Positions 1 through 37,504 of a stretch of 62,685 bases of DNA are shown here, piece after piece. The notes under the pieces are model-generated. The model saw only the letters and a list, made by a program, of their open reading frames with translations. It was not told the DNA's origin and searched no databases. Source of the DNA: a virus (lineage: Duplodnaviria > Caudoviricetes); IMG/VR virus record IMGVR_UViG_3300037354_000009, positions 1-62,685 of that record; one strand, given 5' to 3'. The position numbers and the translations under genes are program-made. Every line of letters starts with the position of its first letter. The first letter of the stretch is position 1.

Positions 1-25
1 TGGTGATGTTGAGGTTCTGAGCCAT
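1..25 (-). CDS. partial CDS (N-terminus MAQNLNIT...), runs off left edge
   Basis: ATG at 25-23 overlaps the TAA of the upstream gene (TAATG coupling); frame open to window edge. Confidence 0.5.
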
Positions 26-561
26 TACTCTTCTAGTTCCTTCTGCGGATCAGACCCGAGATACTTTTGAGCAGCTTCCGGCGTGTACCTACCACGACCT
101 AGACCTAGAAGAGTGGGCTCTATGCCCCTCTTTGCTAGGTGTGCCTTATCAGCAGAATACATACCGTGTGCATCACCGACCCCAGCACCCAGCATGCCAC
201 CAATAGCAGCCCCAAGACCTGGACGTCCTCTAGCAACCCCACCAACCAAAGCACCACCAGCAGCACCTATTCCTCCACCGACCAGAGCATGAATGAGACT
301 CTTCTTCACCCTCTCCTTTATGAGAGCTGAGTCAGCCAGCAGCAAGCCTAGGCCAGAGTCTCCAGCTCGTGTAGCACGAACTATACCGCGTTGACCGTCA
401 TACCAAGACTCTGGCCTTACACTGTGCTCTGGACCAGCTTTCTTCTCAATACCGAGTACCTGCTCTAGCTGAGGAATAGACATCTGATCAAACAGACGCT
501 CTACTTCTGCACCAGCAGTCTTCTCTTGTTCCTCTGCGTACAACTTTGCCATGAAGTCCAT
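25..561 (-). CDS. putative head/ejection cargo protein with glycine-zipper segment
   Basis: 178 aa; N-terminal MDFMAKLY..EEQEKTAG and IEKKAG motifs; GxxxG hydrophobic stretch ALVGGGIGAAGGALVGG...GAAIGGMLGAGVG; RBS AAGGAG. Confidence 0.6.
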   Translation of the reverse strand: MDFMAKLYAEEQEKTAGAEVERLFDQMSIPQLEQVLGIEKKAGPEHSVRPESWYDGQRGIVRATRAGDSGLGLLLADSALIKERVKKSLIHALVGGGIGAAGGALVGGVARGRPGLGAAIGGMLGAGVGDAHGMYSADKAHLAKRGIEPTLLGLGRGRYTPEAAQKYLGSDPQKELEE

Positions 562-564
562 GAT

Positions 565-921
565 CTACTCCTTCTTCCCGTGCTTATCCCAAAAAGCCTT
601 CTTCTGCTCTGGCGTCATGCCGTGTTCCATCTTCTTTATCCCTAGGAAAGCGACCTTCTCTCCTACATACCGAGCAGCTGCCTGCTTGATGTGCCCTGGA
701 GCATTTCGTGTAGCTCTCATAGCCGTGAGTACAAGCTCTGCTTTCTTCTCAGCAGCGGTTGGCTCCTCAGGAGGAGTGGTCTTCTTGGCTGGAGCCTTAG
801 TCTCGGCATCCAGGGACTTCACAACCGAGGCATCTGGAGCCGGTGGTGTAGATGGACCAGCCACGGCTACTTTGGCCATCCCACGGTCATATAGGTCTGA
901 AAGGAAAGTATCCATGATCAC
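565..921 (-). CDS. hypothetical virion protein (K-x-A motifs)
   Basis: 118 aa; overlaps upstream stop; MAKVA, EKKA, EKVA motifs. Confidence 0.6.
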   Translation of the reverse strand: MIMDTFLSDLYDRGMAKVAVAGPSTPPAPDASVVKSLDAETKAPAKKTTPPEEPTAAEKKAELVLTAMRATRNAPGHIKQAAARYVGEKVAFLGIKKMEHGMTPEQKKAFWDKHGKKE

Positions 922-2099
922 TCCTGTAGTGCATCTATTCTGTTACCCAGCTGACCAGAACTCTGTAGACCGCTCTTTGCTCTACGAGACTGGTTCCACT
1001 GCTTGATCTTTCTGATGAGATATGGTGCAGCCACTACCGGCGCACCTAAGCCTAGTGCGTACGTACCGAAAGCCTTGCCTAGCTGCCTACGTGCTGTACG
1101 CAGAGCCTCAGGATGGTAGCCCATAGACTTCATCAGCTTCAGTGCGTGTATGGAGGCTGCGGCCTCTTCTCCTAGAATGGGGGCTACACCAGCAGCCGAC
1201 ATAAGTGGGGACAGCTTAGAGGCTGTGGAGTCAGGATCTGTCAGAGACGCAGTAACATTACCAGCACCTATACCAAACAATGCTCCAGGGAGGCGCAGAG
1301 CCTGTGTGACCTTGCCTATGTTGGACTTCTGAAATATGCCATGACCGAACTCATGAGCTGCTATGTGTGGACCAGCGTCCAATGGGGCAGCGATCAAACC
1401 GTTGTCAAGTGCGCCCGTTGCTAGGTGTGCAGCTGCCCTGTCTAGTACCTCTGGCGTAGCAAACTCTGCAGCAGGAGTCTGATTTAAGTAGTTCCTAATG
1501 AAGCCAGCGACACCCTTCTCCTCACGTTTGCGCATGAACTTAGGCAACATACCACCCTTAGGGTACGTTCTTCCAACGCCTATCCCTCCATGTGGTATTT
1601 GAATCACATCGGGCAAGTCTCCAACAACCTTGTACTTGTCCCGCATTATCTTACCAGCAGCCTCCTCCATAGCGTTTACGTGTTCTGGAGAGATGCTCTG
1701 ACCTAGCTCTGTCTTTTTGAGATTGTTTTTAAGCACCCTGCTTATACGCAGACCACCATACAGGGCCCCAGCATTTGCCAGGCCAGCACCTGCAAGTTCT
1801 GCATTGCTGGTTGCTGCCTGCATGCCTACTAAGGACTTCTTGAGGGCAGCTCTGTTAACAGGATCTGACTGATCTAATTGCTCAGCAGCCTGCAGGGCAG
1901 GCAGACGCTTCTCCTCTACTGGAGACATGCCTTTGCTGCCCCAAGGACCGTGTCTTACTAGACCTACTGCCCCGCTCGCTCCACCGAGTAAGGCAGCCGT
2001 AGTGTAAGGCTTCCTGGATACCCAAGAGGTGATTGGACTCAAGTCTGAGGCCACCTTCTTTTTGAAGGCAGCATATTTTGCCTGCCCAGCCGTTAACAT
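918..2099 (-). CDS. putative membrane-associated zinc metallopeptidase (HExxH), probable virion cargo
   Basis: IAAHEFGH plus downstream EEAAAS third-ligand motif and flanking hydrophobic helices; N-terminal AKYA/KKVA motifs. Confidence 0.65.
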   Translation of the reverse strand: MLTAGQAKYAAFKKKVASDLSPITSWVSRKPYTTAALLGGASGAVGLVRHGPWGSKGMSPVEEKRLPALQAAEQLDQSDPVNRAALKKSLVGMQAATSNAELAGAGLANAGALYGGLRISRVLKNNLKKTELGQSISPEHVNAMEEAAGKIMRDKYKVVGDLPDVIQIPHGGIGVGRTYPKGGMLPKFMRKREEKGVAGFIRNYLNQTPAAEFATPEVLDRAAAHLATGALDNGLIAAPLDAGPHIAAHEFGHGIFQKSNIGKVTQALRLPGALFGIGAGNVTASLTDPDSTASKLSPLMSAAGVAPILGEEAAASIHALKLMKSMGYHPEALRTARRQLGKAFGTYALGLGAPVVAAPYLIRKIKQWNQSRRAKSGLQSSGQLGNRIDALQE

Positions 2100-2101
2100 T
2101 C

Positions 2102-4063
2102 CTACGCCTTGGCGGCTGGCTTAGCTGCTTTTGGTGGGTGGATATTGACATTCACACCAGCTCCACCGCCACCCTCTGCTGAAGGAGGCTTAGGTGCTTC
2201 AGGAGCTTCGCCACCAGCAGGTGCAGCAGGAGCCGGAGGAGCTGCTCCAGTGGCCTCTGCAGGCATCTCTTGAGGCTGTGAGCCGCCACCTGGAGGCATT
2301 GGCTGTCCATCAGGGCCTGCTGCCCCACCCTCAGCCCCAGGAGGGCCAGGAGCTGGACCTACGGGCACCGGTGGAGGTCCAGCGGCCATGGTTGGGTCCT
2401 GGGCCAAGAGATCCATGAGCTGCTGCCTGTATGAGGTAATGGACTGGCGAAGCATCATGACCTGCTGTTGGGCCGCCTGAGACTCTGTCCTGGCCGACAT
2501 AGCGTCCTGCGAAGACATCTGGGCCTGTTCACTGGCCATCTGTGCCTGACCACCCTGGTCCTGCTTGACCTGCTCAATCTCTTGAAGCAGCTGCTGCATC
2601 TGGCCCTCAAGCATACCTGCACGCTCTTCTGCGGCAGATGCTGCTTGCTGGGCCTCATCAGCCCGAGCCTCGTGGAACTCAGATTCGTTGCCCTTCTGGA
2701 GCAATGCCATGATGGCATCCGACGGATCTGGTTGCAGGTCTGGATCAACTGTAGCTACTGGCTCTGCATCTGGTGCAGCACCCATCTCATCGTGCCCTGC
2801 TGGGTACTGATTGCCAGAGGCCTCATTGGCCCCAGGCATCGAGTGCTCGTCTGTGGTGGATAGACCATCACGACCATCTTCAGCAGTCTTCTTCAAACTG
2901 CGAATAGCACTCAGTAGCTTTGTAGCTGCTGCAGTCTTGGGAGCATCCATGCCCTCTGTGAGCTGTCCAGAAAGACCCTTGGCCCCCAGATTCCCGGCCA
3001 TACCGCCCAGAACAGGAGCATGGAATCTCTCACCGATAGCATGACCGGCCAGTACACCAGCCTGACCAGCAGCCTCATTGATTGCACCAGCAGCACCATC
3101 TTGTAGACCACCAGATACAGCGGCCTCTCCAACATCCTCTGGAGGTACCATTTCTGGTACAGATCTGAATAGATTACGAAGGCTCCAGCCTTCCTTGATC
3201 AGAGCAAGAGCAGAGGCTACCTTTGGCGAAGCTGGGTTGAAGCTCAAGGCTCCCTCAGCGAGACGACCCTCACCCGTCAGCTTAGGTGCCAGATTCAGCG
3301 TACCTTTGCCTGGAATGTTCAGGGCTGCTGAACGACCGCCTTTGGCCATGGCCTTCATGCCAAAGTGAGCACCGGCTATACCCAAACCACCGCCTGCTAG
3401 GCCACCCTTGAGGGCACCGCCTAGCATGCTTCCTTGTGGGTTGTTCATGTTACTGACCGCACCACCGATGGCCCCAACGCCAGCACCAGCCGCACCAGCA
3501 GCCAAAGTCGGATGCTTGATCGCCCAACCACCAATCTGACCAAGAACACCAGCAACCTTATGAGAGTTCTTCTCCGTCAGATCACCGGCCCCCTTCTCCA
3601 TAGCACCACGCTTGTTCAGCTTGTGAGCATCAAGCTCCTGACCAACAACTTTGCCAGCCTCATGACCCAGTGCCATGCCTGCAGCAGCTCTAAAAGCTTT
3701 CTCTCCAATACTGTGCCCTTGCCCAGTAAGACCCTTTCCCCTACCAGCCAAAAGACCAGCACCAATGCCAGCCATTGTACCAACCCCTTTACCAAGGCGC
3801 TCACCGTGGGTCCTCTGGTGTTTGGCATGGTTGGTAATGTCCTGTGCTACAGAAGATCGAACTCCTGATAGAGTACCTTGATCCATTGCACGCTGAATGT
3901 CTTCAGGAGCGATGGTTCCTTCGGCAGTCTTGATCAAGAGATCTACCTCGTCACCGAGCAGACCTCCAGAAGCCAGCTTCATGTACATGAAGTGTTCTGC
4001 AGACTTCTCCCACGGAATCTTGTTCTCTGTGGAGAGTGCCTTGAATAGCGCTTCCTCGTGCAT
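2102..4063 (-). CDS. large Gly-zipper/coiled-coil virion protein with many K-x-A motifs
   Basis: 653 aa; three Gly-rich hydrophobic modules separated by IKTA, EKGA, PKVA, PKTA, KKTA; Q-rich coiled coil and Pro/Gly tail. Confidence 0.65.
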   Translation of the reverse strand: MHEEALFKALSTENKIPWEKSAEHFMYMKLASGGLLGDEVDLLIKTAEGTIAPEDIQRAMDQGTLSGVRSSVAQDITNHAKHQRTHGERLGKGVGTMAGIGAGLLAGRGKGLTGQGHSIGEKAFRAAAGMALGHEAGKVVGQELDAHKLNKRGAMEKGAGDLTEKNSHKVAGVLGQIGGWAIKHPTLAAGAAGAGVGAIGGAVSNMNNPQGSMLGGALKGGLAGGGLGIAGAHFGMKAMAKGGRSAALNIPGKGTLNLAPKLTGEGRLAEGALSFNPASPKVASALALIKEGWSLRNLFRSVPEMVPPEDVGEAAVSGGLQDGAAGAINEAAGQAGVLAGHAIGERFHAPVLGGMAGNLGAKGLSGQLTEGMDAPKTAAATKLLSAIRSLKKTAEDGRDGLSTTDEHSMPGANEASGNQYPAGHDEMGAAPDAEPVATVDPDLQPDPSDAIMALLQKGNESEFHEARADEAQQAASAAEERAGMLEGQMQQLLQEIEQVKQDQGGQAQMASEQAQMSSQDAMSARTESQAAQQQVMMLRQSITSYRQQLMDLLAQDPTMAAGPPPVPVGPAPGPPGAEGGAAGPDGQPMPPGGGSQPQEMPAEATGAAPPAPAAPAGGEAPEAPKPPSAEGGGGAGVNVNIHPPKAAKPAAKA

Positions 4064-4074
4064 TGGTGTGCTCC

Positions 4075-4518
4075 TTAGGCAACGTAGTAGATGACGTCGT
4101 AGCGAGGGCCACCAGAGATGGAGGCCGTGATGTGCACGATGTCAGTCTTGACAACTTCAGCAACCGTAGTGTTCGTACTAGGGAACCCAAGTATGGTGTT
4201 CGCAGTACCGACCTTCACTGTGAAACCCTGCTCATCAACCACCAAGATAGGGTTTTGAGGAGACTGGCCATACGAGCGCAGCCTTACTGCTGCCATGCTG
4301 GAGTCAGTAGCCCTGATCTGTGTGTGGATCTCATAGGGAGAAAGACCAGCCCCAGTCGGATCTGAAAGGGTAGTAGTCCTGTCCGCACTGCCGTCATTGA
4401 TGATCACAGTCAACCCATGAAGACCAAAGACGGTTCCCTTCAGTGGCTTACTGCGAACAGCGCCGTTCAGGAAGTCTACTAGCTCCTCTGGGTTGTTGAA
4501 TGTCTTATCGATGTACAT
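4075..4518 (-). CDS. hypothetical structural protein
   Basis: 147 aa beta-rich ORF, RBS AGGAG, inside morphogenesis operon. Confidence 0.6.
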   Translation of the reverse strand: MYIDKTFNNPEELVDFLNGAVRSKPLKGTVFGLHGLTVIINDGSADRTTTLSDPTGAGLSPYEIHTQIRATDSSMAAVRLRSYGQSPQNPILVVDEQGFTVKVGTANTILGFPSTNTTVAEVVKTDIVHITASISGGPRYDVIYYVA

Positions 4519-4526
4519 GTGATCTC

Positions 4527-5540
4527 CTACCTCATACTCTCTCTAGAGAGAAAAGCGGCGCGTAGTACCGCAGCCAGTTTGTCGAATTCGTCTGAGTGCT
4601 TGAACGTGTCCCACAGATTGTTAACCCGCTTGAGCCTCTCCGTACTTTCTGCGTTTGGGTTCCTGTCAGGATGGTGTTGTATTACGAAGTCTCTATAGAT
4701 CTTCTTAGCTTCGACTTTTGTCTTTACCCTGCCTATTCCAGATAGCCCAGCTTCTTCTAACTTAGGAAGATGCCCAGTACTGTAACTCTTAGTGCGAGCC
4801 CCAGCATCACCACGATCCCTGGTGCTAGATCTCGCACCACTGTAGCTACGACTACCAGACCCTGCGCCCCCATAGGACTTCGAACGAGCCCCAGAGTCAC
4901 CGGTCCACTTTTTGTATCTCTTGCTGGCTTCGTCCTCCCCTGTATCCCATTTGACCTTATGTCTAGCTGTGGAGGCTTTCTCTCTAACACCCTTTGCATG
5001 ATAATAGGCGTTACGACTGGCGGCATACGCCTTAGACGCAGCATCCCACTCGTTCCACTTTTTCCAATTATTGGCATGGTGAGCGCTGTCGTGGGCCTTG
5101 CGTGCATCGTTGAAGTGCTGATCAAACGCCGCTTTACCAGCAGCATGATCTGCCTCATGATGGACGCCTTCCCCTATATTGTAGATGCTCTCGTACGAAC
5201 CTTTGTACTCGTTCCACACATCGTGGTTGCTATTTATTCGTGATGCAGTTTTTTTAGCAGCCAGATTTCCGAGAACCTTGCGGGCAGCAAGACCGAGTCC
5301 GATAACACCAGCAGCCCCAGCTACTCCTTTAGCCACGTTCCCGACAGTCCACCCCTTGCCCTTACCTTTGCCCTTATGTTCTACCTCACTCTGATAGACT
5401 GGTTCGCCCTTAGCAGTGTAGTGGTGCACCTTTCCACCACGTGATCCAGCACCACTGAGGGCGATCTTTTCCAGCTCATCAAACAGGGCGGCTGTGTCGT
5501 AAGCAGTGTTCATCTTAGTAGACTCCGTAGCAGTGTTCAT
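4527..5540 (-). CDS. J-domain (DnaJ-like) protein with N-terminal FDELEKIA motif and one TM helix
   Basis: C-terminal KKIYRDFVIQHHPDRNPN...RLKRVNNLWDTF (HPD J-domain); hydrophobic GVAGAAGVIGLGLAA. Confidence 0.75.
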   Translation of the reverse strand: MNTATESTKMNTAYDTAALFDELEKIALSGAGSRGGKVHHYTAKGEPVYQSEVEHKGKGKGKGWTVGNVAKGVAGAAGVIGLGLAARKVLGNLAAKKTASRINSNHDVWNEYKGSYESIYNIGEGVHHEADHAAGKAAFDQHFNDARKAHDSAHHANNWKKWNEWDAASKAYAASRNAYYHAKGVREKASTARHKVKWDTGEDEASKRYKKWTGDSGARSKSYGGAGSGSRSYSGARSSTRDRGDAGARTKSYSTGHLPKLEEAGLSGIGRVKTKVEAKKIYRDFVIQHHPDRNPNAESTERLKRVNNLWDTFKHSDEFDKLAAVLRAAFLSRESMR

Positions 5541-5555
5541 CTTAGTAGACTCCGT
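5502..5555. repeat. perfect 27-bp tandem duplication spanning a stop/RBS/start junction
   Basis: AGCAGTGTTCATCTTAGTAGACTCCGT at 5502-5528 and 5529-5555. Confidence 0.95.
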
Positions 5556-6063
5556 ACCAGCCGTTCACGAAGAAGTACTCAGTATGAACGCCAGAAGAGC
5601 TGGTCATCATGTTGGCAATGTTCATTGCTACTTTCTTCTGCACTTTTTCTTGCTCGTACTTGGTAGAGAAGTCTCGAATCCACTGCATCCACATGGGTGC
5701 CTTGTTGTTGGCGTCCACGCTGATGCCTCCATCCGAGAATTGTAGCTGGTTGCGGGTCTGGAGGATACCGATAGATTGCAGCAAGGCTACGCAGGTTCCA
5801 CGGAGGGCGAAGGCCTGGTAGTACCTACTGAACATGTCTTCGAGGGTCATGTACCCCAGGTTAGGAGGGGTACCAGCGAAGTCAGACAGGAAATCCATGA
5901 TCGCCCATGCGATCATTCTGTCTGAGTGCTCCTGCCCCTTCACCAGCCTATTGAGCTGGGGATGATCTCTCATGAAGAAGCGGACGGTCTGAATGAACGA
6001 GTTGAAGATAGGGCTTGTAGCCCCGCCCGCAACGCCATCCAGACCCTGTAGCTGCTGAGCCAT
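5542..6063 (-). CDS. putative head-tail adaptor/neck protein
   Basis: 173 aa helical protein (VRFFMRD..., SDGGISV) a few genes downstream of the capsid gene; positional inference. Confidence 0.55.
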   Translation of the reverse strand: MAQQLQGLDGVAGGATSPIFNSFIQTVRFFMRDHPQLNRLVKGQEHSDRMIAWAIMDFLSDFAGTPPNLGYMTLEDMFSRYYQAFALRGTCVALLQSIGILQTRNQLQFSDGGISVDANNKAPMWMQWIRDFSTKYEQEKVQKKVAMNIANMMTSSSGVHTEYFFVNGWYGVY

Positions 6064-6368
6064 TAGCTCCTCTTCTCTCCACGCAGCTTACCCCGCTGCC
6101 TACCATCCATCTTCTTTGTCGGAGCGTCTAGGTCTATCTCCTGGACCAAGCCAGAGACAGGCACAGCCGTGACAGTCCTCTTGGGAGCACTGCCCATAGA
6201 GACCAGATCTAAGGACAGCAGGTGCTTCACAACAGGCCCGTAGGCAACTGAATCAGGAAGCTCTTCCCTGACCTTGCCATACCTGTCAACGCACTTCGTA
6301 CCGCCAGCAAGGAGGGTCCACCTCTCCACTGGGAGACTTCTGCTCGTCTTGTTCAGCACCTTTGCCAT
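6063..6368 (-). CDS. hypothetical protein
   Basis: 101 aa, RBS AAGGAG, translationally coupled to the next gene. Confidence 0.55.
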   Translation of the reverse strand: MAKVLNKTSRSLPVERWTLLAGGTKCVDRYGKVREELPDSVAYGPVVKHLLSLDLVSMGSAPKRTVTAVPVSGLVQEIDLDAPTKKMDGRQRGKLRGEKRS

Positions 6369-6371
6369 GAT

Positions 6372-7079
6372 CTACTCCTTACGACGCTTTGACTTCTTGG
6401 TGGGCATATCCACCGTGATAGTCTGATCATCCTGTACCGGCAGAACCCCTGTCTCAAGCAGAAGCTTGTTTGGGTCTACCAGCTCTGTCGTGATGTCTTC
6501 TGATGGGGGCACAGGCTCTGGCATGCCTTCTGGACCTACTACTCCTGGAGCTTCTACAACTCCTGGGTCTCCCACTGCACCTGGATGACCACCATCCCAG
6601 TTCTCATCCGTACCTACAGGACCGGTTGGGCCCTCAGACACAGTCTCTGGTTGTGGGGAGCGCTCTGGCTCTGTCCTTGGGCCTGGAGGTGGAGGAAGCT
6701 CCTCATCAAAACCAGTGCCTGGAACTTTGCCAGCTACCTTACGCTTGAAAGGCCACATCTTGAAAGCCGGGCTAGAGGGTTCCTCGTCAGTCTTCTTGTC
6801 CAAGTAGGTAATGAACAGCCTACCATCTGGACGGGAGTCAACGAAAGACAAGTCTGGGCAAGTGAATGCCAGGCGTCCTTCACGAACCTTGGAAACGATC
6901 TCCTCTTCGTGCGCCTTGAACTCTTCCTCTGTGATTCTGATCGGTCTCTTCGGCAGAATCCTCCTGCCCATCAGCCGCTCAGTGGCTGTGTGTGGCACAG
7001 GGGAGTGGGCACGTTGGATGTGCGAACTCTGAGCCTTGAACATGTTGTGGATAACGAATGTCGGCACCTTCTCAGCCAT
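6372..7079 (-). CDS. hypothetical protein with acidic Pro-rich C-terminus
   Basis: start moved to ATG 7079 (MAEKVPTF; RBS CAGGAGA) because 7093-7133 is a terminator. Confidence 0.6.
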   Translation of the reverse strand: MAEKVPTFVIHNMFKAQSSHIQRAHSPVPHTATERLMGRRILPKRPIRITEEEFKAHEEEIVSKVREGRLAFTCPDLSFVDSRPDGRLFITYLDKKTDEEPSSPAFKMWPFKRKVAGKVPGTGFDEELPPPPGPRTEPERSPQPETVSEGPTGPVGTDENWDGGHPGAVGDPGVVEAPGVVGPEGMPEPVPPSEDITTELVDPNKLLLETGVLPVQDDQTITVDMPTKKSKRRKE

Positions 7080-7092
7080 TTGAATTCTCCTG

Positions 7093-7133
7093 AAAGAAAA
7101 AGCGCCAGCGCCCATGGTTAGGAACGCTGGCGC
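7093..7133 (-). terminator. intrinsic terminator after major capsid gene
   Basis: minus strand GCGCCAGCG-loop-CGCTGGCGC followed by TTTTTCTTT. Confidence 0.85.
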
Positions 7134-7166
7134 ATTCAACTACTTCTGTGTGTTGGTCAGGTCTCT

Positions 7167-8288
7167 TTAGAAGGCCTCGACCTGTGGGAACACCAGACCG
7201 GAGTCAACCCTGTTGTTCTCCTGGCCAAGGTCCTCTTCTGCCATCGGGATGACACTCGACAGGATGCTGTCGGTGTCGAGGCTGGTCGCATCACCCGAGT
7301 AGAGCTCGAGCTTACGTACAGACGCGATGTTGATCACGCTGACGGCGATGTCCTCCCAGGACTGCCAGGTGATCATGTTGGCAATCTTGTCGATGTAGAA
7401 CTTCGTGTTGTTCAGGATGAAGAACTTCCCGAAGAAGTCTGGCTTCGTGAACAGGTACAGGTTACCTGGACGAAGGATGTCCGTCTTGATGGTGCGGCAG
7501 TAAGCACGACCCATGAGGAGGTTGTACTTGTAGCCTTCGACAGTGGTCTCACTGACGATCTTGTTGCCGACGTCTTCAGTGGTCCACTGAAGGATGTCAT
7601 CCCAGTCAACTTCTGTCATGAGAACCATCTCTCCACGGAGACGGTTACCCGACAGCAGCTTGAACATGTTGACCAAGTCTGGCTTCTGGATGGGCAGCGA
7701 TGCCGAGGTCTCGGTAGAGGCATGGCGAGCAAGCTCACCCTTGCGTACGGAGAACTCAACTACGCTACCAGCCTGGACGCCAGCTGCATTCAGTGCAGTG
7801 ACGGTGTTGCCATTGGCTTCCTTCTGGAGAGCCTGGACAGCGGCCTCGATGTGGATCGTGAACTCACGATCTTCGATCTCTTGGATGTCCTTGACGGAGT
7901 TGTCCTCGATGACCTTGGTGATTGGCATTTCGTAGGCCAAGAGCTCCTGCTCAGTCTTCTCGAACTTCTCCGAGGAGATTGTGAAGAAGGGGACTTCCGC
8001 ACGTGGTGCACGGATGAAGCGGGCAGTGGGTTGACCACGGAAGGTCAAGCTCATTGCACGGCTCTTTGGTTCTACGTCGATGATCTTCACCAACGTATCG
8101 TGGTTGACGGAGCGCTGGCAGTCTGCCCGTGTGACCTGTTGCGGTGGGAGGATCTTCCTGGAGAAGGCGACCTCACGCAAACGGTCCCGGATGTACGTAC
8201 CGGCGTACTCAGCGATCTTCTCTTGCCCTTCGGCAGAGTCGAGCTTCTGAGTAAAAAGATCATTCAGAATTCTGGATGGAACGCTCAT
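7167..8288 (-). CDS. major capsid protein (probable HK97 fold)
   Basis: 373 aa; strongly biased codons; followed by terminator; follows protease/scaffold/decoration genes; short N-terminal segment ending QEKIA then YIRDRLREVAFSRKILPP. Confidence 0.75.
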   Translation of the reverse strand: MSVPSRILNDLFTQKLDSAEGQEKIAEYAGTYIRDRLREVAFSRKILPPQQVTRADCQRSVNHDTLVKIIDVEPKSRAMSLTFRGQPTARFIRAPRAEVPFFTISSEKFEKTEQELLAYEMPITKVIEDNSVKDIQEIEDREFTIHIEAAVQALQKEANGNTVTALNAAGVQAGSVVEFSVRKGELARHASTETSASLPIQKPDLVNMFKLLSGNRLRGEMVLMTEVDWDDILQWTTEDVGNKIVSETTVEGYKYNLLMGRAYCRTIKTDILRPGNLYLFTKPDFFGKFFILNNTKFYIDKIANMITWQSWEDIAVSVINIASVRKLELYSGDATSLDTDSILSSVIPMAEEDLGQENNRVDSGLVFPQVEAF

Positions 8289-8325
8289 GTGTATACCTCT
8301 TGTATGAAACCCTTGTTTGCCTCAA

Positions 8326-8769
8326 TTACCCGATGGTCTTGAGGAACCGCAGCTTGCCGCCGTTGTTTGCAGGTAGCCGTGTGACGTACCCGATGACCAC
8401 GCCAGTATCCCAGGCGACCAGACCAGAACGGGTCTGAGCATCATAGGTCACTGCTGCAGAGATCTTGAGTGGGGCACCCAAGACAACGGCACCTTGGAAG
8501 ATGCGGGTATCTGCTTCGTATGGCTTTGCAAACAAGACGGTGGTCTTGCCTAGTGCCTGGACGTCGAAACGTCCACGCTCTGCAAACACTGCGAAACCAA
8601 GGGCTCCCGTGTTTGCACGGATGAGCTGGTAAGCAGAGTTGAGTTGAGCGAACTCACCGTCTAGCAGTGGGTTCGGGTTAGTTGGGTTCACGATGCTTTG
8701 ATCAGCAACCGTAAAGTCCCTGCGGATCAGGTCTTGTACGTCTGTGACCAGTTCGAAATTGACGATCAT
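8326..8769 (-). CDS. putative capsid decoration/cement protein
   Basis: 147 aa beta-rich protein immediately upstream of MCP, ending VIGYVTRLP...KLRF. Confidence 0.6.
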   Translation of the reverse strand: MIVNFELVTDVQDLIRRDFTVADQSIVNPTNPNPLLDGEFAQLNSAYQLIRANTGALGFAVFAERGRFDVQALGKTTVLFAKPYEADTRIFQGAVVLGAPLKISAAVTYDAQTRSGLVAWDTGVVIGYVTRLPANNGGKLRFLKTIG

Positions 8770-8811
8770 GTGGATTCTCCTGTTGTTTCTTGTTGCCTTC
8801 GGAACACCGGC

Positions 8812-9183: not shown

Positions 9184-9189
9184 CCTTCC

Positions 9190-30000: not shown

Positions 30001-30260
30001 ATCTTCTGCTTGTCTATGACCTTGCCAGAAGTGTTGTCCTTCAAGGTGACTGTGGCTTCAACAGGAACGGACCAAGTACGTCCGCTCAGCTTGGCCTGTT
30101 TCTGTGACCTGAGATCATCGATACTCAGATTATCTTTAACCGCTACATCATGTAGTTCTAGCGTGTTCTTCCGCCCGATTATGGGGAAGAGCCCGCTGAC
30201 TGCCTTTTGTACTCGGTCCTTGAGGAGTTCAAACCCCTCTTCCGGTGCAAGACGTGCCAA
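24093..30260 (-). CDS. rpoBC: single-polypeptide two-barrel DNA-directed RNA polymerase, fused beta and beta' homologues
   Basis: beta motifs GDKATGRHGNKG, LLNPLGVTGRTNLGQVLE, KLHHQVEKKLSAR; beta' motifs RPILLKRDPVLHK, HPLVTSGFNADFDGD (~26076-26096), DCGT, VRSPLRC..GICQKCYG, GQSLGERTTQLALKAFHTGG; TTG start with RBS GAGGA. Confidence 0.95.
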   Translation of the reverse strand: MARLAPEEGFELLKDRVQKAVSGLFPIIGRKNTLELHDVAVKDNLSIDDLRSQKQAKLSGRTWSVPVEATVTLKDNTSGKVIDKQKMNLLNLPKVTSRYSHIVDGQEYQIDNQWRLKPGVYNMVKADGALESHVNAIGGFKVHFDPKSKEFTLNYGNSNMPLKPFLHAMGVSEEEVEKSWGKDIVGVNHADETKELAKFYRASTGDKTTKPTPDEAKAHLWETMGKTVLRPEVNLFTLGKGYTSVTGPLLLDASHKLLQISRGEAKPDPRDALMFKDLHSIEDFAAERLIKGSREIIRKVNNNIDRKDRVRDIISPEVFNRPIKQMFGKNSLAIVTDQTNPLEMVSAQMKTTIMGDGGVKSEHQISDDAKLIDPSHLGFLDPIHTPEGHATGITLRLPLGVIKKGHDVVVRMYNTKTGKHEDVNPALAYRSHVALPDQVHWEGGKPKAAGDVVKISGPGNEIYEGKLKDADYIMKDPLQMFSMSSNMIPFMPSDHPNRSTMAGRQMEQAISLKHREVPLVQSMAGANSFDKVVGTFASHRSPVDGVVHKIKSDSIIIKKSDGGKHEVHIYDNFPLNEDKAFMHAEPIVKVGDRVTDGQTIADTNYTKGGTLAIGTNLRAGFMPYKGYNFDDGIVVSESAAKKLTSEHLHRHSLERDIAHILDKKKFQAYMPTAMNKAQYDKLDEEGVVLPGTVIMPGDTLVAALRASNDPERKEDIELSKLHKSIVRPYKDSSIKWDSDYSGIVKEVVKVGKNVSVHVKTEEPLEIGDKATGRHGNKGIVTRIIPDSEMPHTKDGRHLEILLNPLGVTGRTNLGQVLEVAAGKIAEKTGKPYLVKNFAPGADFHAQVTADLEKHGLTDKEEVFDPVTHNKMGDVLVGPMHVFKLHHQVEKKLSARAGGTGYAYDKNMIPRGGGPQGAKSLGTLGLYSMLAHGAVANLREMQTLKSDAAQGDQFWSALQAGEMLPTPKPSFAYHKFLGYIKGLGVNVHKVGNNLTLMPMTDKQIVEQSNGEITDPARWVTAKNMKPEPGGLFDPKVTGGLEGTKWSHYHLPEAFPNPVFESAIIRLLGIKQKEFDGVVGGTLAVDPGTGKIGLAEKMPGGIVGGKAFEHMLGKIDVKRDLAAAKIALDKPTLKGSYLDHANSKVKLLQALDKVGMTPSQAYLAKTIPILPPSMRPLPVLPNGTISEEDLNGLYKNLHLSASRYSKMSPLIPDDDPSKVDVRNEVYDGLRALAGIGGYPSQVRRGILDYIHGKKVIDVRTGAKGGSPKEGFFQDQLVERKQDMSMRGTIIPEPSLGLDEVGLPRSAALEVYKPFVVRELKNMLGITPLQAQKQLTEGGEIVDRALNRVMAGRPILLKRDPVLHKYGVQAFKPRIVGGKAVQVHPLVTSGFNADFDGDAMGAFVPVSVEAVAEAHKMLPSRNLFSPSTGDIMYAPTNESRLGLYGIMQPGKNTNHKFANMQEMEAAVRRGEAHLTDRVSVGGMKASVGRFMVAGALPEAMRRKLLEGSASLDKKAQEAMFTQIGKEHKGEYSDAANKLKDLGNMWATDTAFSIGMKDIAPERHMRDKILAEADAKVHKLTGPHKDQKQIDIYAAATNEMNKHLRAVSESDNNLMLLHNVGMKGGTDTLRQIRAAPMLMSNHKGEIIPTPVRRSYSEGLDVADYWTAISGSRKGIIQKVQSVQEPGYISKQVMNSVMNNLIVDHDCGTDKGIALGVDDKDVLDRFTAADIKAGSHVFKTGTLITPEVRNSLRNNNVGKVVVRSPLRCLHGPGICQKCYGLTENGVLPEKGLNVGVLAGQSLGERTTQLALKAFHTGGTASSKSALVDDFENVKNLLAFPKVLPGSATLSGVNGKVTKIAPSAAGGYEVTVEGHTHYVPHAIGAPMYNGQPLKVGMEVKKGSPISGGLVNPHEMLALTGVEPVQLHLAKELSNAFADSGIRRRNHEVVVKALTNLTKIKDPGSSTGYIRGDFASTSQVSSINRSMPKGAHPIIHEPILKGVNVLPLEMQEDWIAKLNHENLSDTIIEAAQKGWTSSIHGVHPIPAIVYGAEVGKGKPGEY

Positions 30261-31494: not shown

Positions 31495-33537
31495 TCAGAC
31501 TTGCGCAGCTTCAGGACCTCTGCGAGGTGCACGTTGCAGTGGCAACGCTCTCGCAGAGGCCTGTGAGGCGGCGGTGGGACCGTTACCGCCGCTCATCATT
31601 AGCCCCATAACCGTATCGTGCAGAGCTGGGTTGTACTGCTTTAGCCTACCGAGCATGACTGGCTTCTCCCCAGGGTTGAGCCTGGAGAACTTGTCCGCCA
31701 GCTTCCGTGCCATGAACAGCAGGTCCACATTCATGCCACCAGCTATATCTTCGTTGGTAGCAGAAGGTGGATGCCTCTGAACACTCTGCAGGGAGAGTGG
31801 AGAGTTGATCTCCTTAGGCCCAGCAATCAGTGATGGGTTCCTTGGGGTAGGTGTCAGGTCTGGATTTTTAGGTGGGGGTTGCTGTCCTGTTTGAGCAGCA
31901 GCCTGATCTTGCATCATTCCGTTCTGAAGCTCAGACTGGAATGCCATCTGATCTTTAGCCCCCTCACCCTGGATAGCGACTTGTTCAGCCATGGCTTTGG
32001 CTTGAGCCTTGTTGACCCACTTCTGCTGGACCAACTGTGCTTCGCCTTCCATCTCTGCCTGGAGCAGACGCTGCTTCTTCATCGCACCGATGCGACGAGT
32101 AGCTTCGTTCTCCATGATCTGGTCTTCCTTAGCAGAGTCGTAGTCTGCATCCGAGCAGAGAGACTCGTCTGAGATCTTCCCGGCCTGGTTGAGCTGGAAC
32201 AGATAAGCCTTCCTCTGTAGGTCGTCTGCCATCTTGAATGGCTTGAACCTTGCCCCGACCTTGGCCCAGCCTAGGTAGGAAGCCGTACGTTCAATCACCC
32301 AATGCAGCAGTGCCAGCTGATCAGATAGGTAGCCCAGGAACATGTTCTCGAGCATACGCAGAGACACGTTGGACCCCGAATAACTGAGCCCGCCGAAGAT
32401 GAGTTCGGTAGGCACGCCCATACCTGCGATGATGTGTTCGGACCACACTCTGATCTCTTGGCTCAAGAGTAGGGCCCTACCATCACCGCCGATTGTCTGT
32501 TGACCAATGGGCAATGGGAGGATGGGGATATAGTTGTTGTCTGCCCTCCACCGACGCAGCTCTCCTGCGATCTGGTCATGCCAGTCCATCAAGTTGACGG
32601 AGGTGTACGGGTCCGACGTAGCTGACCCAGCCTGTGGGAACAGCACACGCAAAGGAACAATGTGCTCGAGGGCGATGGACTCCTGAGCCTTGCGGAGAAC
32701 CTGAAGGTAGAACGTATCCTTCAGAACAGGCAAGATCATAGGGGTACCCCAACCTCTATCCTTCCCGGCCAACGTGGGCCGCTTGAAGTGATAGATGTTG
32801 TCACGAGAGAACACGACAGCTTTTCTTAGCCTTAAAGCATCAATGAAGAGCTGTGGCATGGTCTCCACAGTGGACTTCTTCCCCATGATGATGTCGTTCT
32901 TGATCTGAACAGGGATGGTGTAGTAGTACTCCGACTCACCGGTGATGTCGTTGTACCGGGTATCGATATCCTCGGGGTTCCACCTGAGCAAACGAATGCC
33001 CTTTGGTGCCTTGATGTAGTGATCACGAACCAAGGCAATGTCAGCATGGCTGCACTTGGTGCACTCCCAGTGGAACTCAAAGTTCTGGAAGCGGTACGTG
33101 GCATCAGCAGCCTGCTTCTCATGCCCACAGCGCTTGCACTTGAGCATCTTCACGAAGGGGTAGAAGATACTGACCAAGGCGTTGCCATAGGCGTAGTAGT
33201 CCAGCCCCAGTTCAATCTGGAAGGGACGGTACCTGAGCTGAGAGTTCAGGAAGGTGTACCACTTCTCCTTCAGATCTGGCTTGTCCGTGTCCAGGATGAT
33301 GTCAGTGACTGGGTAGTCCGCCATCTTGGCCACGACTGCATTGATCAGTGGGTTGACCAAGAAGTAGTACCTGCACCACCGGAACATCTGCTTGACGGTA
33401 GCCGGTAGGTAGGTCTGACCAATGTCAAAGAATGGACTCGGGTACTGCAGACCGTAGTCAGAGGAGCTACCGGTACGTCCACGAGACCTAGAGAAACGAA
33501 GTGCAGAGGAGTCCGCACCGCCCAATCCTACAGACAT
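31495..33537 (-). CDS. portal protein with zinc-ribbon insertion
   Basis: 680 aa; RYYFLVNPLINAVV, YYAYGNALV, LLRWNPEDI, IYHFKR...GWGTPMILP; CKRC/CTKC insert; Q-rich C-terminus. Confidence 0.75.
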   Translation of the reverse strand: MSVGLGGADSSALRFSRSRGRTGSSSDYGLQYPSPFFDIGQTYLPATVKQMFRWCRYYFLVNPLINAVVAKMADYPVTDIILDTDKPDLKEKWYTFLNSQLRYRPFQIELGLDYYAYGNALVSIFYPFVKMLKCKRCGHEKQAADATYRFQNFEFHWECTKCSHADIALVRDHYIKAPKGIRLLRWNPEDIDTRYNDITGESEYYYTIPVQIKNDIIMGKKSTVETMPQLFIDALRLRKAVVFSRDNIYHFKRPTLAGKDRGWGTPMILPVLKDTFYLQVLRKAQESIALEHIVPLRVLFPQAGSATSDPYTSVNLMDWHDQIAGELRRWRADNNYIPILPLPIGQQTIGGDGRALLLSQEIRVWSEHIIAGMGVPTELIFGGLSYSGSNVSLRMLENMFLGYLSDQLALLHWVIERTASYLGWAKVGARFKPFKMADDLQRKAYLFQLNQAGKISDESLCSDADYDSAKEDQIMENEATRRIGAMKKQRLLQAEMEGEAQLVQQKWVNKAQAKAMAEQVAIQGEGAKDQMAFQSELQNGMMQDQAAAQTGQQPPPKNPDLTPTPRNPSLIAGPKEINSPLSLQSVQRHPPSATNEDIAGGMNVDLLFMARKLADKFSRLNPGEKPVMLGRLKQYNPALHDTVMGLMMSGGNGPTAASQASARALPLQRAPRRGPEAAQV

Positions 33538-34391: not shown

Positions 34392-35254
34392 GTGAGTAAC
34401 AACAGCTGTTCTTTGAGCTGCCTCCCCCTCAGAGCTTGATAGTCCCACGCCACCTTCAGTTTGGCTACCTGTATGTCTACCGCCGTCTCTTCAAGAGACA
34501 TGCCAGAAGTCTTGATGGCCTCTCGATACTTGCGCTGCACCTCTAACTCCATACCCTCGTACTCAATGCCTCTGTCTGACAAGTAACGATTGATCTCTGC
34601 CTGACAAAACGAAACAGGATGTGGTGCGTACAGCACTCCTTCATCCAGCATGCTTGCAGCCACAAAGCTTTCCACCTCAGGCGCAAACACCTCACCCTTA
34701 CGAACCATCTCTGCGATGTCCACGCTGCTCATGAGCTGTGACAATGATGGCTTCTGAAGAACGTGCCAGTCTGGGATGTTGTTGTTCAGTGCTTGGGTGA
34801 TCCAGCAGAACGTCTCCCAGTTCTTCCAGTACATCTCCCCTATATGAAGGGTGCGTACCGCTTGTATCTTAGCCTTGGCATGGTCGGAGATAGAGGGAAC
34901 CCTGAAGTCTTCCTTGATCTCTTTCCACAGCGTCTCTGGCTGCCACTCAAACCAGTCTGCCTGGTACCGTTTCAACAGAGCGATGTCGAACACCACCGGG
35001 TGTGTGTCGTGATGAACGAATAGGTTCTTCCCAGTGACTGGTGTGGTCTTCCTGGTATTCAGCTCCGGCACCTGTAGAGGTGGGGGAGCGTATGGCTCAG
35101 GTAGATTAACCTTATAGTGATCATCTGTAGGTACAACTGTCTTCGCATCGAGGACAGCTGAGTCATCGTCACTCGGTGTAGTGGGTATCTGCTGGCCGAC
35201 TTTTTGTAGTACGGCCAGCAGATTTGACTCGTGGTCTGTCACCCCGTCCTTCAA
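34388..35254 (-). CDS. hypothetical virion-associated protein
   Basis: 288 aa (start uncertain: TTG 35254 or GTG 35242); LQKVG near N-terminus. Confidence 0.6.
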   Translation of the reverse strand: MKDGVTDHESNLLAVLQKVGQQIPTTPSDDDSAVLDAKTVVPTDDHYKVNLPEPYAPPPLQVPELNTRKTTPVTGKNLFVHHDTHPVVFDIALLKRYQADWFEWQPETLWKEIKEDFRVPSISDHAKAKIQAVRTLHIGEMYWKNWETFCWITQALNNNIPDWHVLQKPSLSQLMSSVDIAEMVRKGEVFAPEVESFVAASMLDEGVLYAPHPVSFCQAEINRYLSDRGIEYEGMELEVQRKYREAIKTSGMSLEETAVDIQVAKLKVAWDYQALRGRQLKEQLLLLT

Positions 35255-36097
35255 TTATGTAGGACCAGTTGCGCCAGTCACACCGGTTGGGCCGGTAGGA
35301 CCGGTAGCGCCAGTGACGCCTGTTGCGCCAGTAGCACCAGCAGAGCCTCCACCAAGCTGTACCGTGATAGGAGCAGTCAATGTACCGTTCGACTCGACCA
35401 CAGCAGCCACCTTGTCACCAGTGTTGTGTGCTGGAGTCGTGGTGCTCAGGTTCGGAGATGACACAGTGAGGACAGCGTCAGTCCAAGCAGCCGCACCAGT
35501 GGCACCGGTGGTGTTCTTTGGTAGTGCTTCCACTCCCGAGAACGTCACCTTGTTGCCAGCATATGCGCCAACGCCACCAGCAAGAGGCGTAGAGGCCACT
35601 GCTAGAGCGAATGGAGTAGCGTCACCAACGACGACGGTTGCCCACAGGATACCCTGGCACCCAGAACCGTTGGCATTGATCAGCGTAGCGATAGCAGAAG
35701 CCGTGCTTCCGCCAGCAGCAGGTTGAATGGTGAGGGTGTTGTTGGCGAAGGCCACCGAAGCTCCTCCTGCTGCCACAAGGATCACGACCTTGATGCCGCT
35801 CTTACCTGGCTTCAGTGCAGTGATGACCAGGTGAGAGGTACCAGACACGAGCGTCAGTGTGTCGAAGGTCTGGCCCTGAAGCAGAGCTCTGCCACGGAAC
35901 ACCACTGTGGCTCCTGTTGCTGCAGGCTCAGCACCCACTAGCCAGTCTAGCATCGGGAACCCGACCTGAGCTTCCAGGTTCTCGAATCCAATTTCCGTAT
36001 CACTGCGAAGGTCAGCGACCTCGCCTGGGATACCGCTCTTGCCTAGAAGCAAGTGCTCTAGCTTTGCATGTTGTGCGCCAAATGATCTACTGGACAT
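35255..36097 (-). CDS. structural protein with C-terminal collagen-like G-X-T repeat
   Basis: beta-rich; ends GATGATGVTGATGPTGPTGVTGATGPT. Confidence 0.65.
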   Translation of the reverse strand: MSSRSFGAQHAKLEHLLLGKSGIPGEVADLRSDTEIGFENLEAQVGFPMLDWLVGAEPAATGATVVFRGRALLQGQTFDTLTLVSGTSHLVITALKPGKSGIKVVILVAAGGASVAFANNTLTIQPAAGGSTASAIATLINANGSGCQGILWATVVVGDATPFALAVASTPLAGGVGAYAGNKVTFSGVEALPKNTTGATGAAAWTDAVLTVSSPNLSTTTPAHNTGDKVAAVVESNGTLTAPITVQLGGGSAGATGATGVTGATGPTGPTGVTGATGPT

Positions 36098-36109
36098 GGT
36101 CTCTTCTCC

Positions 36110-37504
36110 TTATTGTGAGTCGTTGAGAATCCTGGCAATGATACGTTTCGAATCCAAAGGCAGAGAGTCGAATACCGTATTCGGGTTCTCTACGATTTCA
36201 CTGGCCAGTTCTTTTCCGAACAGGGTGCAAATCTCGTGAATCTTCTTTCCGTCCCTGACTCCCTGGGTAAGTACATCCTCGGTCAGTCTATCGGCACCTT
36301 GCGTCCAAGTCCACTCAGCTTGCTTGGTCATACCAAAGGTTGAGGCGATAGGATCGACCACGTAGTCATCCCAATACTGATCGATACCGTGGTCAACGTC
36401 GAACCTTGTAAGCTCTGCACAGAAAGCTTCTGGCTTTGCACTGGCATACTTATCGATCATTCCCTTGAGCACATCACGCTCAGGAGAATCATTCTGCCAG
36501 AACTGCATACGGGTACTGACTGCTGCTCTAACTTCCATCTCTGGAGCAAAGCTCTTGCTTGCGTACTTCCTGATCGTACTAGTCACCTGGATGCCTAGGC
36601 TGTCCGCCCTTGCTGCCAGCTTGGTGCAGTACTCTTGTCGGTCACTGGGATGCAACGTCTTACCATTCTCTTCGAACCACCGGTTGGCCTCGAGGACATC
36701 GCCGTAGGAATCGAGAGGGAACCTACCCTGGCCGTACTTGTGTAGGGCGTAGTTGCTGTGAGCTTGCTTCACGAACTTGGGTTCTGGTGCTTTACCAGTC
36801 ACATCCACGTAGAGTGCCGCAGTCTTCTTGATCGTAGCATTGAGCTGACTATCAGCATCGTCAGCCTTGTTGGGGTTGGACTGGAGTGGCATGATCTCAG
36901 AGCCGGTCACGTCTCCGTCCTTCTCTAGCCTAGGAAACACCGACTCGCTTTGCCTGCGCTTGCTCTTACCGTAATTCAAAGAATTGCCAAAAGCTACTTC
37001 ACCAGACTTCCCTCGTCTGACCGCCTTCATAGCCTGGGCACTAGCGTTTTGTCCTGCGGTAGAAGAACTAGCCCTTCGAAAAAGAGCCAAATCCTTTGGG
37101 TTATTTGGTAGCAGATCGGTGGCTAAGGCTTTAGCGAATGCCTCTGCCTTCGTAGCAATCTTCTCGAGCTGTGCGGGAGGCTCTATACCGAAGGCCAGGC
37201 AGTACCCGAGCAGGTTTGCCGCAGCGATCTTCTGGGCTTCCTCAGGGAGCTTGTCCTTGGTCTCCATGAAGTAGAGAGCAGACAAGGCAGTATTCCCCTT
37301 GTCCACGCAGGCAAACTTCCTCATGGCCTTGCCGTTGTCTACCATGATCAGAGCGAAGGCGTCATCTGGCAAAGCTGCCAGCTTCTCCTCTGTCTGGAAG
37401 TCAGCCGATCTGACGTAGTCAGGCAGCTGGGCGTGAGCCACTTTGGTTTTGAGAACCGACCCCATCGGGTCGTCATAGAAGTCAATGATGGTGCCGGTTT
37501 GCAT
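36110..37504 (-). CDS. putative head core protein, K-x-A-rich; first gene of portal operon
   Basis: 464 aa; QKIA, EKIA, KKTA, VKQA, TKLA, RKYA, DKYA, TKQA. Confidence 0.65.
   Translation of the reverse strand: MQTGTIIDFYDDPMGSVLKTKVAHAQLPDYVRSADFQTEEKLAALPDDAFALIMVDNGKAMRKFACVDKGNTALSALYFMETKDKLPEEAQKIAAANLLGYCLAFGIEPPAQLEKIATKAEAFAKALATDLLPNNPKDLALFRRASSSTAGQNASAQAMKAVRRGKSGEVAFGNSLNYGKSKRRQSESVFPRLEKDGDVTGSEIMPLQSNPNKADDADSQLNATIKKTAALYVDVTGKAPEPKFVKQAHSNYALHKYGQGRFPLDSYGDVLEANRWFEENGKTLHPSDRQEYCTKLAARADSLGIQVTSTIRKYASKSFAPEMEVRAAVSTRMQFWQNDSPERDVLKGMIDKYASAKPEAFCAELTRFDVDHGIDQYWDDYVVDPIASTFGMTKQAEWTWTQGADRLTEDVLTQGVRDGKKIHEICTLFGKELASEIVENPNTVFDSLPLDSKRIIARILNDSQ

Follow-up and report, generated by a model that had tools for sequence, protein, structure and literature searches.

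The window analysed here is the whole contig of a tailed virus (IMG/VR record IMGVR_UViG_3300037354_000009; 62,685 bases, estimated to represent 33% of a genome). Our subject is a short motif, Lys-x-Ala (K-x-A), that recurs in the proteins of its head-morphogenesis block, together with a candidate prohead protease encoded among them. The block occupies positions 25-15406 on the minus strand and encodes 19 proteins, most of which found no family in Pfam and PHROG scans. The head genes follow the order 309-amino-acid (aa) protein, 129-aa protein, 217-aa protein, protease, 298-aa scaffold-like protein, then proteins of 93, 356, 123 and 147 aa, and finally the major capsid protein (MCP). The candidate protease gene (593 aa; 11544-13325, minus strand) belongs to this head block and precedes the scaffold-like and MCP genes, and the same head gene order was found in Salmonella phage Arash and Vibrio phage D69. 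The MCP (373 aa; 7167-8288, minus strand) matched PHROG 2522, major head protein (E 2.7e-8), and is 27% identical to the Arash MCP. Relatives fetched from IMG/VR through this MCP lay on contigs of up to 195 kb, and positions 1-25000 of the window gave no nucleotide match among cultured phages.

The 19 head-block proteins contained 69 K-x-A tripeptides against 45.2 expected from shuffled sequences (ratio 1.53, z 4.0), and none of 1000 shuffles reached 69. For the 34 minus-strand proteins encoded between 25 and 37941 the count was 111 against 82.9 with whole-protein shuffles (z 3.4), an excess that was unchanged when these proteins were shuffled locally in blocks of 15 or 30 residues. Other spacings and orders of Lys and Ala stood at chance, only K-xxx-A being mildly high (102 vs 82). 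Related tripeptides showed no comparable signal in R-x-A (26 vs 28.6), E-x-A (at chance, 78 vs 78.6) or K-x-E (38 vs 51.4). The motif was likewise scarce or at expectation in the large terminase (17103-18914, minus strand; PHROG 675, E 4e-65) and in the 2055-aa fused beta-beta' RNA polymerase (24093-30260, minus strand; Pfam Rpb2_6, Rpb1_2, Rpb1_5), which served as negative controls and held 0 sites against 2.1 expected and 10 against 13.5, respectively. The 680-aa portal protein (31495-33537, minus strand) held 4 against 3.4; it was recognised by BLASTP to the annotated portal gp14 of Bacillus phage G (E 4.5e-19, residues 35-433).

The initial annotation, made from the sequence alone, had described a motif of the form K-x-A(G/S), and the instances it quoted are all present, including EKIA at residues 23-26 of the MCP and, in the 593-aa protein, EKAA at 28-31 and 296-299, GKTA at 37-40, AKLA at 267-270, QKIA at 463-466 and FKTA at 507-510. 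Its extension to Gly and Ser did not survive: in the head block K-x-G was depleted (18 vs 33.3, z -2.9) and K-x-S stood at chance (24 vs 23.8), which rules both out as general members of the motif. The comparison with a shuffled null thus upheld K-x-A and gave no enrichment for K-x-[AGS] (111 vs 101.9, z 1.1). The copy number had also been overstated, as about 17 proteins often with 5-9 copies each; 7 of the 19 head-block proteins have at least four K-x-A and 5 have none. K-x-G look-alikes do occur, despite the overall depletion of K-x-G in head proteins, in the N-terminal leaders FFEELEKLG or IQLEKLG of the proteins encoded at 10284-10565 and 20536-22563 (both minus strand). A cause at the level of DNA, such as a repeated or methylation-type DNA motif, was ruled out by frame specificity and by ordinary codon usage at the sites: the pattern AARNNNGCN occurred 80 times in the coding frame of 20 candidate genes and 7 and 10 times in the other two frames. 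Because codon choice at K-x-A sites matches general usage, the selected signal is that of the protein.

Conservation, rather than counts, gave the strongest confirmation of the signal, in line with the expectation of the initial annotation that the motif would be kept in homologues. We collected 168 related loci around the MCP, family A DNA polymerase and portal genes, translated their open reading frames (ORFs), matched these to 46 window proteins and aligned them family by family. Joint retention was taken as the fraction of homologues keeping both Lys and Ala, and other K/A pairs at spacings 1-4 in either order served as controls. Head-block K-x-A sites had a retention of 0.60 (n=63) against 0.35 for other K/A pairs (n=267; Mann-Whitney p 1.6e-7), and 40% of them were kept in at least 0.8 of homologues, compared with 14% of the other pairs. 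With terminase, RNA polymerase, portal, tail and replication proteins pooled, the corresponding values were 0.19 (n=50) and 0.24 (n=374; p 0.97), with 0.22 vs 0.25 for the RNA polymerase and 0.37 vs 0.30 for the portal. Restricting the head-block comparison to homologues of less than 60% identity left a retention of 0.55 against 0.19-0.29, and in an unbiased retention scan over 212 residue-pair/spacing patterns with at least 25 instances K-x-A ranked first. Many sites retain Lys and Ala and vary in the middle residue and the flanks, as in EEKTA↓S of 10572-11468 (retention 0.94, flanks 0.20; the arrow marks the presumed cut), MEKAA↓S of the protease (0.97 and 0.34) and LYKEA↓M of 14477-15406 (0.97 and 0.23). 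Judged by these alignments, K-x-A behaves as a selected short linear motif in the proteins of the head module only.

The sites also showed a characteristic placement. A K-x-A starting in the first 45 residues was present in 13 of the 19 head-block proteins (6.0 expected, p 0.001), compared with 14 of the 47 proteins outside the block (8.9 expected). That of the MCP, at residues 24-26 (window 8211-8219), was kept in 0.97 of 63 homologues. The first gene of the head operon (309 aa; 14477-15406, minus strand) encodes a K-x-A-rich protein with 11 sites against 3.3 expected, of which those at residues 31, 53, 127 and 234 were retained at 0.72-0.97 with flanks at 0.2-0.7; it holds the position of Arash gp220 and D69 0268 and has N-terminal similarity to the latter (E 6e-5). 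The two small head proteins of 129 and 217 aa (13328-14367, minus strand) have one N-terminal K-x-A each, at residue 39 (retention 1.00, 4 homologues) and residue 12 (0.62), and 13328-13981 is similar to Arash gp221 (E 5e-7). Immediately downstream of the protease, the acidic 298-aa scaffold-like protein (10572-11468, minus strand) carries 8 sites against 4.7 expected; its sites 21, 30, 88 and 270 (EEKTA↓S) were retained at 0.94, and other K/A pairs there average 0.22. Just upstream of the MCP gene, a 356-aa low-complexity protein and a 123-aa protein (8812-10260, minus strand) have 8 sites against 5.0 and 4 against 1.3, with conserved sites at 27, 85, 100 and 313 in the former and at 50 and 74 in the latter.

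At the distal end of the block, where the aligned families comprise 4-9 homologues each, four proteins of 653, 393, 118 and 178 aa (25-4063, minus strand) contain 10, 2, 5 and 2 K-x-A sites, and all four have one in their first 45 residues. Sites conserved among 6-9 homologues lie at residues 20, 29, 157, 376, 392 and 645 of the protein encoded at 2102-4063, at residue 8 of 918-2099, and at residues 17, 59, 79 and 89 of 565-921. Residues 1-90 of the 178-aa protein (25-561, minus strand) form a leader with two K-x-A that recurs at the N-terminus of different, longer proteins in relatives, for example in the 529-aa L020 ORF and, in two copies, in the L001 ORF, so that this leader looks portable. 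Conversely, the 561-aa L072 ORF matches only the downstream residues 45-168 of 25-561.

Among cultured phages, homologues of the MCP or the 593-aa protein were found only in Arash, the Vibrio phages D69, D148 and D181, and phage G, whose homologue of the 593-aa protein is more distant than those of the others. In Arash and D69 the K-x-A signal was clearer than in the window. Arash gp218-gp226 contained 46 sites against 21.2 expected and D69 0266-0275 contained 51 against 22.9, compared with 22 vs 18.1 and 16 vs 17.9 in the respective neighbouring tail and RNA polymerase genes; summed over both phages, head genes had 97 sites where about 44 were expected, and non-head genes 38 where about 36 were expected. 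The richest proteins were gp220 (10 vs 3.0), gp223 (8 vs 2.9) and gp225 (7 vs 1.9) in Arash and 0268 (11 vs 4.1), 0271 (10 vs 2.9) and 0273 (6 vs 1.6) in D69. Their MCPs read GL[VT]KEA↓GA, with K-x-A at residues 27-29, in MCPs that are only 25-27% identical. Among the 97 head sites, 71 have Leu, Met, Ile or Val two positions before Lys, 29 have Glu just before Lys, and 56 have Ser, Ala or Gly directly after Ala. This flank pattern was absent from the 38 non-head sites, and the head form in the two phages can be written as [L/M/I]-x-K-x-A followed by S/A. In the window, 20 head proteins contained 41 instances of [LMIVF]-x-K-x-A where 11.2 were expected (z 8.8), and the other proteins 29 where 18.8 were expected; this test was partly post hoc since the window's own logo had been inspected earlier. 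In the virion proteome of Arash, as given in the accessible part of the Arash paper (Table 2), the K-x-A-rich proteins gp220-gp225, with the protease homologue gp222, were covered to 80-100%. The proteome search described there was fully tryptic, which makes it blind to cuts after K-x-A, so that it neither shows nor excludes them; if these proteins are processed, they would stay in the particle like internal head proteins.

By family assignment the 593-aa protein is a candidate head-maturation protease. Its N-terminal domain spans about residues 1-262 (window 12540-13325) and is joined by a hypervariable linker to a C-terminal domain. Residues 1-262 matched PHROG 18299, "head maturation protease" (E 2.9e-4), a family name that is itself an annotation, and the same family was matched by the homologues phage G gp19 (2.6e-19), P0139 (1.5e-9), Arash gp222 (2.1e-6) and D69 0270 (6.6e-7). 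Phage G gp19 is also called a head maturation protease in the accessible part of PMC12484599. The family as a whole comprises 2583 representatives at E<=1e-3. In an alignment of 45 members, which share 31-55% identity with the window protein, His109, Ser165 and Gly167 were invariant; the spacing from His109 to Ser165 is 56 residues, and that from His85 to Ser140 of T4 gp21, which we take to be the catalytic residues of that enzyme, is 55. Three blocks of the window protein, N-x-N-x-x-x-[FY]-P, H...N-x-D-P and G-x-x-P-x-V-S, were collinear with T4 gp21 in a non-significant hhalign alignment, and the language-model neighbours carrying a Pfam name were S77 and S78 clusters (score 0.90), which we treat as a lead only. 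Inteins (Hint/LAGLIDADG), inserted beside the Ser motif, were found in three of five long homologues scanned (P0006, P0011 and P0064), and the lengths of 900-1700 aa seen in the family are explained by their insertion. The P0006 intein starts at residue 177, adjoining the conserved D-V-S-M-G/C motif, and inteins tend to sit at essential active sites.

The protease itself carries conserved K-x-A sites. Lys38 and Ala40 (residues 38-40, window 13206-13214) were each at least 90% conserved in the 45 members, with a joint retention of 0.84. Three further sites lie directly after the conserved N-terminal domain, in the linker (12429-12545, minus strand), and their joint retention was 0.95 (residues 261-263), 0.89 (268-270) and 0.97 (297-299). 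This linker after the catalytic domain is gap-rich in the alignment, and K-x-A was kept there in 43 of the 45 members; T4 and phiKZ-type proteases likewise have cleavage sites in such a position. A set of 150 family representatives contained 1578 K-x-A against 736 expected, a total that counts conserved aligned sites repeatedly; 148 of the 150 exceeded their own expectation, and other K/A patterns in the same set had ratios of 0.76-1.22.

Reasoning from these sequence patterns and from analogy, we consider it probable that the K-x-A motifs are cleavage sites of the phage's own prohead serine protease (11544-13325), with Lys at P3 and Ala at P1. We read K-x-A as a cleavage code because gene order and site placement match the scheme of T4 and of phiKZ/SPN3US. 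The cut is placed after Ala on account of the analogy with T4 gp21, with the P3-x-P1 sites of phiKZ/SPN3US and with the Ala↓Ser sites of assemblin, and because of the preference for Ser or Ala at the next position. The fuller recognition motif would be a hydrophobic residue (L/M/I)-x-K-x-A followed by S/A/G/E. The protease would be built into the procapsid along with scaffold, core and internal proteins, where it would strip a propeptide of about 26 residues from the MCP (after residue 26) and short N-terminal leaders from most other head-block proteins. It would further cut scaffold-like proteins at several internal sites, and its own linker, thereby freeing itself from its C-terminal domain.

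A number of observations weigh against cleavage by this enzyme. The excess of K-x-A in the head block is real but modest at 1.53-fold, and counts alone do not confine the motif to the head. The 47 other proteins had 94 sites against 75.7 expected, a weaker excess, and the 25 replication proteins (38055-56382) had 41 against 30.4 (z 2.0) at sites that were not conserved. The claim of the initial annotation that terminase, tail and replication proteins are not enriched accordingly held for the site-free terminase and needs qualifying for this weak replication excess, which may be a general property of proteins. The retention p-values, such as that of 1.6e-7 for the head block, overstate independence, as the homologues are mutually related, and MAFFT aligns low-complexity stretches imperfectly. 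Among the fully conserved sites, those at MCP residue 301 and protease residue 261 fall within well-conserved segments and may be structural rather than cut. The MCP of phage G is without K-x-A, and the coverage of Arash virion proteins does not show removal of any part.

The assignment of the protease also has points on the other side. Neither the protein itself (E up to 5) nor a six-frame search of the whole contig (E up to 10) gave a match to the Pfam S77/S78 families (PF03420, PF04586), PDB sequence and profile searches with the protein gave chance hits only, and its 45 aligned homologues found no Pfam family at E<=0.01. The hhalign comparison with T4 gp21 was not significant either with the single gp21 sequence (E 0.54) or with a gp21 profile (E 0.34), the latter a shallow one built from 61 close T4-type sequences, since all gp21 homologues retrieved were at least 65% identical to T4. 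The protease proposed for 11544-13325 in the initial annotation is backed by PHROG 18299 and by the invariant His109 and Ser165, and not by Pfam S77/S78. Whereas enrichment, head-specific conservation, motif placement and family assignment are direct observations, we infer that the motif is cut, that the 11544-13325 enzyme does so, and that the cut falls after Ala.

Some of these observations might be read in other ways. K-x-A could be an uncleaved docking or targeting motif through which scaffold, core and cargo proteins attach to the inner shell, the portal or the protease for incorporation into the procapsid. The head-specific conservation, the N-terminal sites in 13 of 19 proteins and the multiple copies in scaffold-like proteins would fit such a role equally well, as would the presence of K-x-A-rich proteins at high coverage in Arash virions according to the accessible part of that paper. 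We nevertheless regard it as unlikely, since docking fails to explain why sites cluster where the protease's catalytic domain ends, in a linker whose length varies, and why a small residue, typical of a scissile bond, stands right after Ala at 56 of 97 sites. T4 has its targeting leader and its cleavage site in the same place, and so docking and cleavage are not mutually exclusive readings.

Head proteins are also rich in Ala and Lys, and it might be argued that K-x-A is a functionless by-product of the composition of Ala/Lys-rich helical scaffolds, with retention inflated by alignment bias in low-complexity regions. The weak excess in non-head proteins and the mild rise of K-xxx-A would fit this view. 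It is made very improbable by the persistence of the excess under 15- and 30-residue block shuffles, by the other K/A spacings and orders, which are at chance in count and retained far less, by the first rank of K-x-A among 212 patterns, and by the specific flank pattern in independent phages. The strict conservation of Lys, with R-x-A not enriched, would suit a conserved Lys that is covalently modified or cross-linked through an isopeptide bond or acylation, Ala being needed for access. Against this, the sites are many per protein and lie in disordered variable linkers and in scaffold proteins that are likely transient, their turnover between homologues is unlike a fixed structural cross-link, and Pfam and PHROG scans identified no modifying enzyme in the head block; we see hardly any chance that modification accounts for the motif. 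Cleavage by the prohead protease remains our preferred reading of K-x-A.

The initial annotation had gone further and viewed the head-region ORFs as polyproteins that release scaffold, membrane peptides and enzymes inside the capsid. One case conforms to this view, and it lies outside the range considered there. A 448-aa protein (56757-58103, minus strand) contains an InPase pyrophosphatase domain (PF18823; residues 224-345, Pfam E 3.9e-42) bounded by K-x-A sites at residues 192, 218, 354 and 361 (GLKKRA, ALVKHA, TLIKVA and LLQKRA). The L081/L082 homologue, which is otherwise collinear with it, is without exactly residues 222-351. The same domain sits inside a protease homologue in the L067 ORF, in the linker, and in P0041, in both with a K-x-A 15-20 residues upstream of the InPase Pfam envelope; in the L067 ORF EGEKVA↓YK stands at the start of the InPase BLAST match, and in P0041 two more K-x-A follow the domain. 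This single example suggests that modules bounded by K-x-A can be shuffled. As to the remainder of the claim, most head-block proteins look, from their sequences, like scaffold or core proteins and internal head proteins with N-terminal propeptides, and a Pfam scan of the other head-block proteins found no recognisable enzyme domain except a DnaJ domain in the protein encoded at 4527-5540. This J-domain (minus strand, residues 270-315) scored 28.1 bits, the Pfam cut-off being 27.8, and the protein has an N-terminal LFDELEKIA leader.

Outside the head operon, a 464-aa protein (36110-37504, minus strand) contains 11 K-x-A against 4.5 expected, with a retention of 0.56 (n=11) compared with 0.16 for other K/A pairs (n=41; p 1.5e-5). 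It found no family in Pfam, PHROG and an atlas search and no cultured-phage match by tblastn; we regard it as a candidate internal head or ejection protein. The protein encoded at 20536-22563 has 10 K-x-A against 4.6 expected and no match in cultured phages (tblastn); its homologues in the related loci are N-terminal partial only, and among 6-9 sequences three of five sites were retained at 0.67 or more, too slender a basis for assigning it to a class.

The range 25-37504, which the initial annotation had treated throughout as head, also holds the terminase, RNA polymerase and portal genes, a gene for a spike-like protein (22870-24093, minus strand) and a tail-fibre-like gene (35255-36097, minus strand; PHROG tail fiber). 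A replication module with DnaB, primase, family A DNA polymerase, RecA and UDG follows on the plus strand (38055-56382). In D69 the fused RNA polymerase (24093-30260) corresponds to two distinct genes, 0261 and 0264, and its C-terminal part is matched by Arash gp216. Three minus-strand proteins (58127-60421, 61156-62655 and 16462-17190) are nearly lysine-free, with 0.8%, 1.0% and 1.2% Lys compared with 5-10% elsewhere, and found no family in Pfam/PHROG scans.

Propeptides, scaffold breakdown and internal or ejected proteins of T4 and phiKZ-type phages have been mapped with the help of prohead-protease motifs. The predicted K-x-A code would provide the same kind of map for a widespread clade of large phages with RNA polymerase genes, whose head proteins are almost unannotated. 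It predicts mature ends for the MCP and about a dozen head proteins, and it flags 36110-37504 and 56757-58103 as likely packaged proteins outside the head operon. If the reading is true, the specificity range of the prohead serine protease superfamily, which takes in T4 gp21 (S77), HK97 gp4 (S78) and herpesvirus assemblin, would widen towards the Ala↓Ser rule of herpesviruses. More tentatively, it is possible that a large, mostly uncultured clade of phages of about 120-195 kb has a Lys-x-Ala capsid protease, unlike the enzymes that cut after Glu and closer to assemblin, and that K-x-A serves there as a portable cargo junction as well. This clade would span at least 2583 protease representatives, including Arash, D69/D148/D181 and, more distantly, phage G. 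Cargo modules such as the InPase domain or an N-terminal leader might then be fused to head proteins or to the protease, released in the capsid and delivered to the host.

We found no description of a K-x-A prohead-protease motif in the literature searched, a search that did not extend to the 2020 J Mol Biol study of the phage G head, and no published cleavage motif for phage G gp19, Arash gp222 or D69 0270. The Arash phage paper makes no mention of a protease or of cleavage, and the accessible part of PMC7481178, which describes the RNA-polymerase-encoding clade of tailed phages to which, on that partial account, the window probably belongs, makes none of a protease.

The closest counterparts are phage G gp19, Arash gp222 and D69 0270, which are true homologues of the window protease (tblastn E 1e-9 to 2e-36; all PHROG 18299) and, like it, are rich in K-x-A together with their neighbouring head genes. 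They are shorter, at 300, 491 and 471 aa, respectively, and phage G differs in the K-x-A-free MCP already mentioned. Among studied systems, T4 shows the same gene order as the window, with core proteins, protease, scaffold and MCP. Its protease gp21 (S77) acts on gp22, gp67, gp68, gp23, gp24 and internal proteins and cuts after Glu in (L/I)-x-E. The window enzyme resembles gp21 as a putative Ser/His enzyme with near-equal His-Ser spacing (56 vs 55) and with collinear blocks, in an alignment that is non-significant. Likewise, both motifs comprise three residues of which the first and third are fixed. In each system, scaffold and core proteins carry several copies of the motif, the MCP and internal proteins have it close to their N-termini, and the protease itself contains it. 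The window system differs in that the fixed residues are Lys and Ala, with E-x-A at chance, in the lack of a significant S77 sequence or profile match, and in size, the window enzyme having 593 aa with a long C-terminal extension and gp21 212 aa.

Similar parallels can be drawn with phiKZ gp175 and SPN3US gp245, which also belong to large phages with many internal head proteins and with RNA polymerase genes among the structural genes. For SPN3US gp245, the accessible part of PMC10052503 describes cuts that all follow A-x-E, N-terminal propeptides, self-cleavage and several cuts within some propeptides. N-terminal propeptides, self-cutting and several motif copies in propeptides are likewise predicted for the window phage. 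The phiKZ/SPN3US motif (A/S/G-x-E) differs from that of the window, whose fixed residues are Lys and Ala and whose last position is not Glu, and the window RNA polymerase is a single fused protein in which K-x-A sites are unconserved.

The herpesvirus protease assemblin cuts at (V/L/I)-x-A↓S. The window motif is similar in having Ala before the presumed scissile bond and Ser or Ala after it (56 of 97 sites with S/A/G), and the self-cleavage predicted here would, as in assemblin, part the protease from a scaffold-like C-terminal portion; it differs in having Lys, rather than a hydrophobic residue, two positions before Ala. To our knowledge, every phage prohead protease studied so far cuts after Glu. 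In the window Glu is absent from the last motif position and a conserved Ala stands there instead, so that the specificity differs from that of the studied enzymes. On the sequences compared here, the specificity is likely to be new, while the type of enzyme and the maturation scheme are probably those already known from these systems.

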